Shown here piece after piece: positions 34,903-35,841 of a DNA stretch of 64,000 nt. The notes below the pieces were generated by a model that saw only the letters and a program-made list of their open reading frames with translations, had not been told where the DNA came from and did no database searches. Position 1 is the first letter of the stretch. Every line of letters begins with the position of its first letter. The position numbers were made by a program, and so were the translations under genes. Source of the DNA: Bacteroidota bacterium (lineage in GTDB: Bacteria > Bacteroidota > Bacteroidia > 2-12-FULL-35-15); NCBI GenBank assembly GCA_052389695.1, contig JBQTHQ010000021.1:24295-88294 (forward strand), read 5' to 3'.

Positions 34903-35841
34903 TTACAAATAACGAGGTGAAACTATCTTAGATTTAAAAATATTGAAATCATAACTAAGCATGATCTCATGACTGCCACCACCAGCACGCCCGATCCTGT
35001 TAAGCCCGAAATCATAAGCATAACCTAATTTAAATTTTTCATTAATATGAAATTGTGTATAGGCAACAATACCATACTGACTGCGGAATGAAAAACCAAC
35101 CCACAGGCGCTGATTCAATAAAAAACTAAAATTAAGATCCCCGGTGGAGGGAGCATTTTTAGCTGCTTTTATCATACATGATAAATTAAAGATCAATTTA
35201 TCAGAAAGATCCCATGCCTTGCCCATTGTAAAAAAGTAATGAGGTGATAACTGCGCATTGTCACCATTTGCATTGGCAACTTTTGTAATGCGCCCCTGTG
35301 TTATGTGTGTGGCGCTAATCCCAAGGTAAATGGTATTGGTATAATAATACAGTCCGGCATCAGCAGTAGGAACCATCACTGAAGTTTGATTCTGCGAATT
35401 GTAAACATCCGCGGGATCCTTATATTCAATTTTTGCCCAGTTATAAGTATAGCTATATACACCCGCGCGTAAACCAAAAGCTAGTTTTCCATTTTTAATC
35501 GGAATACGATAAGCGTATGAGCCTAAAATACCTGTACTTTTTTTCGGGCCGATCTTATCACTTATTATTGCAAGGCCCAAACCCACTTTTCTTTTTCTTA
35601 AAGGCCCGTGAGCAGTTATGGTGTTTGTTGTGGGTGCACCATCAATGCCTGTCCATTGACTGCGTAAAAATAAAGCAGTGCTCAACGCTTCCTTACTGCC
35701 TGCATAAGCAGGATTAATTGCCAATTGATTGAACATGTACTGGCTGTATTGTGGGTCCTGTTGGGCAAACACCTCTCCCCCGGCCCCTCTCCAAAGGAGA
35801 GGGGTGAGGAAGACTAATAAAATTAGTATTATTTTTTTCAT
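34903..35841 (-). CDS. PorP/SprF-family T9SS outer-membrane protein (signal-peptide region carries a 36-nt GC-rich palindromic insertion)
   Basis: 312 aa. ...AQQDPQYSQYMFNQLAINPAYAG...RSQW as in PorP/SprF. Compared with the paralog at 10525 the N-terminus has about 12 extra residues (PLLWRGAGGEVF) encoded by the CCCCTCTCC..GGAGAGGGG element. Confidence 0.75.
   Translation of the reverse strand: MKKIILILLVFLTPLLWRGAGGEVFAQQDPQYSQYMFNQLAINPAYAGSKEALSTALFLRSQWTGIDGAPTTNTITAHGPLRKRKVGLGLAIISDKIGPKKSTGILGSYAYRIPIKNGKLAFGLRAGVYSYTYNWAKIEYKDPADVYNSQNQTSVMVPTADAGLYYYTNTIYLGISATHITQGRITKVANANGDNAQLSPHYFFTMGKAWDLSDKLIFNLSCMIKAAKNAPSTGDLNFSFLLNQRLWVGFSFRSQYGIVAYTQFHINEKFKLGYAYDFGLNRIGRAGGGSHEIMLSYDFNIFKSKIVSPRYL
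35771..35810. repeat. REP-like GC-rich palindrome cacctctcccc cgg CCCCTCTCC aaa GGAGAGGGG tgagg, in frame inside the porP/sprF 5' coding region
   Basis: Read directly. 9-bp perfect stem with 3-nt loop. Same family as 56651-56690. Confidence 0.6.

Follow-up and report, generated by a model that had tools for sequence, protein, structure and literature searches.

What is a GC-rich palindrome doing inside the signal-peptide coding region of a porP/sprF gene, where it is read in frame as part of a secreted protein? This question is raised by a 64,000-nucleotide stretch of contig JBQTHQ010000021.1 (positions 24,295 to 88,294 of the forward strand) from the Bacteroidota assembly GCA_052389695.1, referred to here as the window. 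A previous sequence-only reading of this locus had taken the palindrome for a REP-like (repetitive extragenic palindromic) element that entered the gene as a 36-nt insertion, and had proposed that it might impair secretion or else be "tolerated or exapted". The element is identified here as a copy of the BoxC/PIT/TM repeat, a G/C-rich class II intrastrand-triplex motif, and the second of those two proposals is the one that fits the data. According to the reading that we favour, with a probability of about 70%, the porP unit is a translated copy of this repeat that behaves as a tolerated, partly co-opted passenger, and not as a lesion or as a dedicated regulator.

The features on which this reading is based are the following, in window coordinates.

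34903..35841, minus strand: gene for a PorP/SprF type IX secretion outer-membrane protein, 312 aa (PF11751, E 3.3e-78)
35764..35841, minus strand: signal-peptide coding region, 26 codons, with the cleavage site placed by the junction conserved among orthologs
35772..35804, minus strand: triplex-motif (BoxC/PIT/TM-type) unit, nhmmer E 4e-7
35796-35804, minus strand: homopyrimidine arm (Y-arm) of the unit, CCCCTCTCC, followed by the loop TTT (35793-35795)
35784-35792, minus strand: homopurine arm (R-arm) of the unit, GGAGAGGGG, followed by the spacer CC (35782-35783)
35772-35781, minus strand: third strand of the unit, GGGGGAGAGG, a perfect mirror of the R-arm
35805..35809, minus strand: CCTCA directly 5' of the Y-arm in gene sense, which lengthens the RNA stem

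The translated unit and the PorP/SprF signal peptide

A unit of the BoxC/PIT/TM family begins with a homopyrimidine arm, which a loop of 3-6 nt separates from the complementary homopurine arm (8-10 bp, G/C-rich); a spacer of 2-5 nt and a G-rich third segment that mirrors the purine arm complete it. The porP copy has the family layout CCCTCTCC(C), loop, (G)GGAGAGGG, short spacer and GGGG(T/A)GAGG, with nearly identical blocks. On the plus strand, positions 35770-35809 read CACCTCTCCCCC-GG-CCCCTCTCC-AAA-GGAGAGGGG-TGAGG, while the minus strand, which is the sense strand of the gene, reads CTC A CCCCTCTCC TTT GGAGAGGGG CC GGGGGAGAGG TG TTT GCC CAA CAG. The arms form a GC-rich hairpin with 9 of 9 base pairs, which occupies codons 13-25 in frame. 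The reversed R-arm, GGGGAGAGG, is contained within the third strand, as is characteristic of class II purine-motif triplexes; with its third mirror-repeat strand, the element is not a classical REP. The CCTCA that precedes the Y-arm may be the remnant of a complementary third strand, comparable to those of the palindromic double units found at two other loci (L068 and L072).

The element is a dispersed GC-rich palindromic repeat, as had been claimed, and an nhmmer profile built from 138 cross-phylum units matches the minus strand at 35772-35808 with an E value of 4e-7. The pattern CCCCTCTCC-N2-8-GGAGAGGGG has a single exact match in the window and none in 100 dinucleotide shuffles, and the DNA around the unit is about 36% GC. 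A second assembly of the porP locus is identical over 1939 nt, and therefore the unit is not an artefact of the assembler. Searches of Rfam, carried out on the whole window at gathering thresholds and on the local region at E ≤10, returned only chance matches to microRNAs and small RNAs far below threshold. Likewise, no direct repeat that could represent a target-site duplication, which accompanies the terminal inverted repeats of miniature inverted-repeat transposable elements, was present at the junctions of eight in-register copies or of the 138 units.

The product of the host gene is a 100% match to a database protein annotated as PorP/SprF of a Bacteroidota metagenome-assembled genome, and the gene order is the usual one, with the gene for a CHU_C type-B substrate of the type IX secretion system upstream and an OmpA/PD40/TPR gene downstream. 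The position of the element, in frame within the signal-peptide coding region of this gene, was thus correctly described. The unit is translated as (T)PLLWRGAGGEV, so that the N-terminus of the protein reads MKKIILILLVFLT-PLLWRGAGGEV-FA|QQDPQYSQY. In this signal peptide, the n-region is MKK, the h-region is IILILLVFLTPLLW (14 uncharged residues) and the c-region is RGAGGEVFA. The predicted cleavage site, VFA|QQ, was placed by means of the xFA|QQDPQYSQY junction conserved in 117 orthologs, and holds V at -3 and A at -1. This agrees with the canonical layout recognised by the Sec pathway and signal peptidase I, in which a basic n-region precedes an uncharged h-region of 7-15 residues or longer and the residues at -3 and -1 are small.

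The sequence-only reading had located the Arg and Glu encoded by the unit in the hydrophobic core. Both residues fall instead in the c-region, after the 14 uncharged residues and before the intact VFA|QQ, and the residues PLLW lengthen the h-region. Because the signal peptide keeps the canonical layout, the window PorP is most likely exported normally, as judged from its sequence. Impaired secretion is unlikely because the mature domain shows, in comparison with its closest ortholog, a ratio of nonsynonymous to synonymous divergence (dN/dS) of 0.034 at a synonymous divergence (dS) of ~1.1, which denotes strong purifying selection, and because intact orthologs and unrelated secreted proteins have retained this arrangement. 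In fact, the n/h/c layout is identical in all other unit-bearing PorP orthologs.

In the mechanism proposed here, the first four codons of the unit (PLLW) would complete the hydrophobic h-region and the remaining ones (RGAGGEV) would make an extended c-region, directly after which the gene's own F-A|Q-Q cleavage site would be found. The h/c boundary is likely one of the few coding positions and frames in which a translation rich in Pro, Leu, Trp and Gly is harmless, and the placement may also owe something to a preference for pyrimidine-rich Phe/Leu codons such as those of h-regions. A filter imposed by selection, rather than targeting, would then explain where the unit is found.

The same bases are predicted to fold in the mRNA into a hairpin of -16.8 kcal/mol for the core and -29.6 kcal/mol for the extended stem (z = -3.4 relative to shuffles). 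Since the core begins 38 nt past the AUG, which is unpaired in the predicted fold, a direct effect of the hairpin on translation initiation is not expected from this model. Translation initiation in Bacteroidota depends on an unstructured A-rich leader, and an A-rich leader is present upstream of the porP start.

Recurrence among PorP orthologs and in other secreted proteins

The history of the unit was followed in a set of 117 close PorP orthologs, in which P0001 is the window protein. The intact peptide P[LF]LW[RK]GAGGEV is found in five of them, a variant unit read in another frame (LPFGEGWGGAS type) in another five, and decayed relics such as SLWKGTGYLFAQQ in nine, mostly from one clade, so that unit-derived peptides, either intact or decayed, are present in 19 of the 117. 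In four PorP orthologs that are more distant, the unit occupies the codon position that it has in the window gene. At the DNA level, which was inspected for seven orthologs, every carrier holds a hairpin at the equivalent site, ending two codons before the cleavage site; L001, L002 and L003 have the unit at the position occupied in the window, and L005-L007 have variants. The L002 copy is decayed and AT-enriched, with paired changes that preserve the stem (CCCCTTTCC / GGAAAGG). The variant unit, CCTCCCC-TTT-GGGGAGG-GC-TGGGGTGGGG, is located at the same signal-peptide position (L005, 3001-3080) and is read in the frame LPFGEGWGGAS. It is encoded by the genes of P0037, P0073, P0089, P0090 and P0091, and L005 also holds a canonical unit in its upstream intergenic region.

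The closest ortholog, P0002, whose mature domain is 93% identical to that of P0001, lacks the unit and has a 19-aa signal peptide that is common to P0004 and P0005 (76-79% identical to P0002). Since this sister ortholog has the usual 19-aa signal peptide of the clade, it is the version with the unit that is derived in the lineage of the window. The sequence-only reading had stated that the same 12 residues, if found in orthologs, would point to an ancestral sequence; distant orthologs do carry them, but the closest ones do not. Its paralog at 10525 does lack the residues, as it had stated, but is too distant to be used as a comparison. The alignment of orthologs did not recover the clean 36-nt insertion. 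The signal peptide has 26 aa in the window and 19 aa in the closest orthologs, a net gain of seven residues in which the surrounding sequence has been replaced; subtraction of the 12 residues would leave 14 aa, and the window and sister loci cannot be aligned over the whole signal peptide and the intergenic region. A recombination tract that reaches into the mature domain was ruled out, the first 60 mature residues being 98% identical to those of the sister.

The comparison with L001 is informative about how the distant copies are related. The unit is identical at 32 of 35 nt, while the mature coding sequence is 70% identical and its third positions only 47%, which is evidence at the nucleotide level for copies of a repeat and not just a conserved peptide. 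The unit contains GGG codons, which are otherwise rare in these porP genes. Since the identity of the unit exceeds that of the flanking coding sequence, separate acquisition, or homogenisation with other copies of the genome, explains the near-consensus copies of distant orthologs better than vertical inheritance does on its own. As the relic-bearing clade demonstrates, an old copy can survive as a peptide once its palindrome has decayed. According to these data, the history of the unit in PorP is one of recurrence, not of simple ancestry.

The unit is also found at the same place in proteins that are unrelated to PorP. The 33-residue N-terminus was used as a query against 1.84 billion representative proteins, a search that favours N-terminal matches of the MKK-hydrophobic type and that reveals the existence of such secreted proteins, not their frequency. 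Among its 14 matches, at least nine are not PorP proteins, one being a DUF5683 protein, another a TPR-OmpA protein and several others secreted but uncharacterised. The non-PorP matches share a layout consisting of MKK, about 10 hydrophobic residues, [ST]PL[LF]WRGAGGE[VA] and then F[AS]|Q. One match, P0129, was discarded as a chance resemblance at the peptide level, as it corresponds to FG-GAP/VCBS-like repeats (motif DLLWRGAGGEVA) from a GC-rich organism and not to a unit.

The DNA of four non-PorP genes and four PorP genes aligns in register across the unit, and the distance from the start codon to the unit is 37 nt in five genes and 40 nt in two. The unit always ends in GAGGTN, followed by TTT GCN/TCC CAA, and in every case two codons separate this end from the cleavage site. 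Over the first 37 nt, clear DNA homology is lacking among the unit-bearing genes, and therefore they do not represent a recently copied cassette. Two of these genes, L209 (TPR-OmpA) and L210 (DUF5683), unrelated to each other but both from GCA_036382295.1, hold the unit at the same signal-peptide position and also share the 14 nt that follow it (GTCTTTGCNCAAACC), which hints at an exchange or homogenisation of the 3' halves of signal peptides within a genome. Copies in signal peptides are a small minority of all units; in an unbiased genome sample, none of about 35 Bacteroidota units was located in a signal peptide. The fixed placement could reflect either a narrow harmless window or targeting, perhaps to pyrimidine-rich Phe/Leu codons that resemble the Y-arm.

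The repeat family, its other copies in the window and DUF559 genes

A scan of one genome per species with the pattern CCCTCTC-N3-13-GAGAGGGG-NN-GGGGGTGAGG revealed at least 120 loci that carry the unit with unrelated flanks. The taxa among the listed matches include Chloroflexota, Bacteroidota, Cyanobacteria, Planctomycetota, Acidobacteriota, Pseudomonas, Xanthomonas, Nitrospirae and the candidate phyla radiation, among others, and a CTC just 5' of the unit is only weakly preferred across these loci. The family commonly occurs as inverted pairs with 25-110 nt between the units. Tandem arrays of three to seven same-strand copies with regular spacings of ~7-10 and 30-50 nt, a form not seen in the window, were observed in L053, L090 and L099 (Anaerolineales and other GC-rich genomes).

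As for the window itself, three copies of the family are present in its 64 kb. The two that lie outside the porP gene are these.

35888..35948, plus strand: second unit, oriented opposite to the porP unit and intergenic (CHU_C stop to porP start); Y-arm CCCTCTCC (35888-35895), 34-nt palindromic loop (35896-35929), R-arm GGAGAGGG (35930-35937), TT, third strand GGGGAGAGG (35940-35948)
56653..56741, no strand assigned: third copy, a palindromic double unit, directly after a stop codon; CTCACCTCCC (complement of the third strand), TG, Y-arm CCCCCTCTC, loop TTTAA, R-arm GGAGAGGGGG, a 43-nt insert (a hairpin and then a T-run) and the canonical third strand GGGGGTGAGG (56732-56741)

The second unit, which the earlier reading overlooked, is separated from the CHU_C stop codon by 4 nt; its DNA fold has an energy of -19.2 kcal/mol (z = -4.7), and the core of the palindrome nested in its 34-nt loop is GCGCTGAAGCTTCAGCG. 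Together with the unit at 35772-35804 it makes an inverted pair with a separation of ~83 nt, which encloses the 5' untranslated region of porP, the start codon and the first 12 codons. The third copy had been assigned, as 56651-56690, to the same family as the porP element. The arms and the layout are indeed shared, but the profile of 138 units matches only the hairpin part (E 0.008), and the true extent is 56653-56741. Its inner hairpin and T-run resemble a terminator by eye, but were not called by a terminator scan. No other unit-derived peptides were found among the open reading frames of the window, and no DUF559 gene within its 64 kb. Two large secreted proteins whose genes lie on the window's minus strand are unrelated to the unit: both have unusual low-complexity regions, in one (11454-13502) a very Gly-rich stretch that brings local GC up to ~46% at 12-14 kb, and in the other (36492-39566) a collagen-like GPxGPxG run near its N-terminus.

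The likeness to BoxC/PIT/TM repeats extends to the dispersed copies with unrelated flanks, the frequent inverted pairs and the many taxa. Among the 138 sampled units, 72 fit the Escherichia coli consensus, CCCTCNCCC-N3-6-GGGNGAGGG-N3-GGGNGAGGG, when the spacer is 3-5 nt. The window copy differs in being translated within a signal peptide, the E. coli copies being reported as intergenic, and in being hosted by an AT-rich Bacteroidota genome. The REP and REPIN elements, to which it had been likened, are also short GC-rich palindromes that occur singly or as inverted doublets, and the BoxC-type units flank the gene for a small nuclease in the way that REPs flank those for RAYTs. REPs are extragenic and lineage-specific and are mobilised by a Y1 (IS200/IS605-like) transposase. 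In contrast, the window copy is located in coding sequence, the sequence of the unit is conserved across phyla, and the gene flanked by units encodes DUF559 and not a Y1 transposase (RAYT genes were not specifically searched for).

In E. coli K-12, the motif is present in 23 copies, which have been described as "always intergenic" and are often arranged in inverted pairs, and it has been found in more than 260 genomes (Holder et al. 2015, NAR 43:10126, PMC4666352). That study, in which earlier work by Bachellier and by Hoyne/Maher is among the sources cited, reported that single-stranded DNA of the motif forms a stable triplex in vitro, although none was detected in vivo, that the E. coli motif has neither promoter nor terminator activity, that it is associated with local genomic instability but not with mobile elements, and that purine-motif triplexes do not form in RNA (PMC4666352). 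The Rickettsia palindromic elements (RPEs; Ogata et al. 2000) are, according to the summary in PMC10969869, also in-frame palindromes of coding genes that are translated without destroying the host protein. They are described there as ~100-150 bp long and found in Rickettsia only, whereas the window unit is ~35 nt long, cross-phylum and unrelated in sequence, and holds a triplex-type third strand.

Contrary to the earlier statement that elements of this kind are rare inside coding sequence, in about 10% of the sampled loci a copy lies in frame within a real gene and is bordered on both sides by Pfam domains. The genes concerned encode Lhr helicase, HypF, MnmE, alpha-L-fucosidase, a NuoM-like subunit, ResB/CcsA, a transglutaminase-like protein and a phosphoesterase. 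Such insertions are compatible with the reading capacity of the unit, since six of six frames are free of stops in the window copy and five of six in the consensus, with peptides rich in Pro, Gly, Ser and Leu.

In seven of the 120 listed loci, units directly flank a DUF559 segment (PF04480, E ~1e-34). Four of these seven cassettes lie entirely in frame within another gene, which encodes LeuRS in two cases, MetRS in one and a restriction-modification methylase in the last; an Eco57I-type methylase gene with a fifth such cassette (L141) came from a scan of metagenomes for DUF559. The in-frame DUF559 loci include L012, L056, L098, L129, L141 and L152, and the restriction-modification hosts are of the Eco57I/MmeI type. 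The translations of the units make Pro/Gly/Ser-rich linkers around the in-frame DUF559 segments, and no intein or intron signatures were seen at these cassettes.

The association was also examined in reverse, by means of the best 80 loci of the metagenome scan, the query alignment of which was biased towards the unit-flanked DUF559 subfamily. A unit was found within 150 nt of the DUF559 segment in 30 of the 80 loci, and on both sides in 12; the density of units near DUF559 is ~25-fold that observed farther out in the same loci, and 22 of the 80 segments are in frames that remain open for at least 120 codons past one side. A fixed orientation of the units was discarded, as layouts with the third strands inward and outward both occur. 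In E. coli K-12, the end of ycjD, a gene annotated as DUF559 domain-containing, falls within a degenerate unit (…RRSPSP*, CCCTCTCCC TGA), and the intact TM-ECO copy no. 9 is found 168 nt downstream. A partial duplicate of the 3' end of ycjD is located there between the degenerate and the intact BoxC copies (L128, NC_000913.3 1351204-1351760).

The co-location of units and DUF559 genes is therefore an observation, whereas a role of DUF559 in moving or processing the units is only inferred. DUF559 has a Vsr/PD-(D/E)XK fold, which is shared with the EDxHD homing endonuclease I-Bth0305I (Taylor et al. 2011, PMC3239194). Homing elements of the I-Bth0305I type and inteins resemble the form composed of DUF559 plus units in that a Vsr-fold nuclease is carried on a selfish insertion in housekeeping genes. 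They differ in that the DUF559 insert is apparently simply translated, and the window copy has no nuclease cargo. A literature search of incomplete coverage found no report of a link between DUF559 and BoxC, including ycjD and the in-frame insertions. These Vsr-like endonuclease genes, flanked by units across phyla, are the best lead on how the units spread.

Competing explanations and significance

The strongest competitors of the passenger reading attribute a role to either the peptide or the structure. The hairpin or triplex itself could be under selection, by slowing early elongation for Sec targeting, by stabilising the mRNA or as a hotspot of instability at 5' ends, and the fixed distance to the start codon (37 nt in five genes, 40 nt in two), the stem-preserving changes of L002, the perfect stems despite a dS of ~1.1 since the split from the sister gene and the genomic instability associated with the family in E. 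coli (PMC4666352) would all agree with it. This explanation is nonetheless unlikely, given that many orthologs have retained the peptide pattern while the palindrome decayed, the opposite of what selection on structure would leave, that most PorP orthologs have no such structure, that the AUG is unpaired in the predicted fold and that the E. coli family shows no promoter or terminator activity, no triplex in vivo and no purine-motif triplex in RNA (PMC4666352). Alternatively, PLLWRGAGGEV could be an ancestral part of the PorP signal peptide that is conserved at the peptide level and was lost in some lineages, not an inserted repeat. P0006, P0008 and P0106 (58-71% identical) have the same residues at the same position, and the decayed versions present throughout one clade of 13 orthologs look vertically inherited. 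We regard this ancestry as quite unlikely, as the four closest relatives (93%, 82%, 80% and 78% mature identity) lack the unit and the signal peptides of three of them are of another kind, 19 aa long and homologous to one another. Furthermore, the DNA is a near-consensus copy of a repeat that recurs, between unrelated flanks, across many phyla and in unrelated proteins; its GC-rich codons are atypical of these genes, and the unit is more conserved than synonymous sites elsewhere.

It is distinctly improbable, in our opinion, that the units at 35888-35948 and 35772-35804 bound a single replaced segment made up of the intergenic region, the start codon and the first 12 codons, arisen by recombination or as a doublet, and that units swap 5' ends or signal peptides between genes. 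The homology with the sister locus does stop at the CHU_C stop codon and resume at CAACAGGA, just outside the pair, inverted pairs at such distances are common in the family, E. coli included, and L209 and L210 share the unit plus the next 14 nt. But a dS of ~1.1 is by itself enough to make the intergenic region and the signal peptide unalignable, weak residual similarity around the start codon suggests that the start is native, the first 37 nt lack clear DNA homology among unit-bearing genes, and no upstream unit is present in the other unit-bearing orthologs. Least probable of all is that the unit disables the signal peptide, so that this PorP/SprF copy is impaired in secretion or is becoming a pseudogene: although Arg and Glu have been added and the c-region is unusually long, 14 uncharged residues precede the charges, the -3/-1 rule is respected, the reading frame is intact under a dN/dS of 0.034, intact orthologs and many other secreted proteins share the arrangement, and the CHU_C / PorP / OmpA operon context is the usual one.

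Several observations weigh against the passenger reading. The c-region has nine residues, when the usual length is 3-7. The window copies do not fit the E. coli consensus, even with a spacer of 3-5 nt, their arms being shifted by one base relative to it. The paired changes of L002 could indicate selection on the structure itself. No clean pair of empty and filled sites was found, and the divergence from the sister gene (dS of ~1.1) prevents a reconstruction of the insertion event. Finally, a simple tolerance filter would predict a less regular placement in unrelated genes than the near-fixed one observed.

A wider reading, which we hold only tentatively and to which we would give less than even odds as a whole, is that the BoxC/PIT/TM units serve as the cis-acting ends of a selfish element that spans phyla and is driven by DUF559, that this element can insert into coding sequence, as its units translate as stop-free Pro/Gly/Ser-rich linkers, and that in Bacteroidota solo units have repeatedly ended up at the h/c boundary, through either targeting or very strong filtering. 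BoxC/PIT/TM repeats have been known for ~30 years and from hundreds of genomes, and to our knowledge no origin, mobility mechanism or function has been accepted for them. If the selfish-element reading were true, it would explain a repeat family that has been without a mechanism since the 1990s, and a mobile repeat would be supplying secreted proteins with ready-made c-regions, perhaps also promoting the exchange of 5' ends between genes. If DUF559 were the driver, the spread of the repeats could be tested in E. coli, DUF559 would gain a function, and the family would be the second, much broader case, after the Rickettsia RPEs, of selfish DNA that survives inside proteins.

Apart from this wider reading, the porP locus places a known repeat in a new context, translated where the h- and c-regions of a signal peptide meet, a placement that recurs at a nearly fixed position and that most likely does no harm. 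For annotation, the unit accounts for the peptides "PLLWRGAGGEV", "GRGAGGEG" and "GEGLGVR" that appear in predicted proteins.

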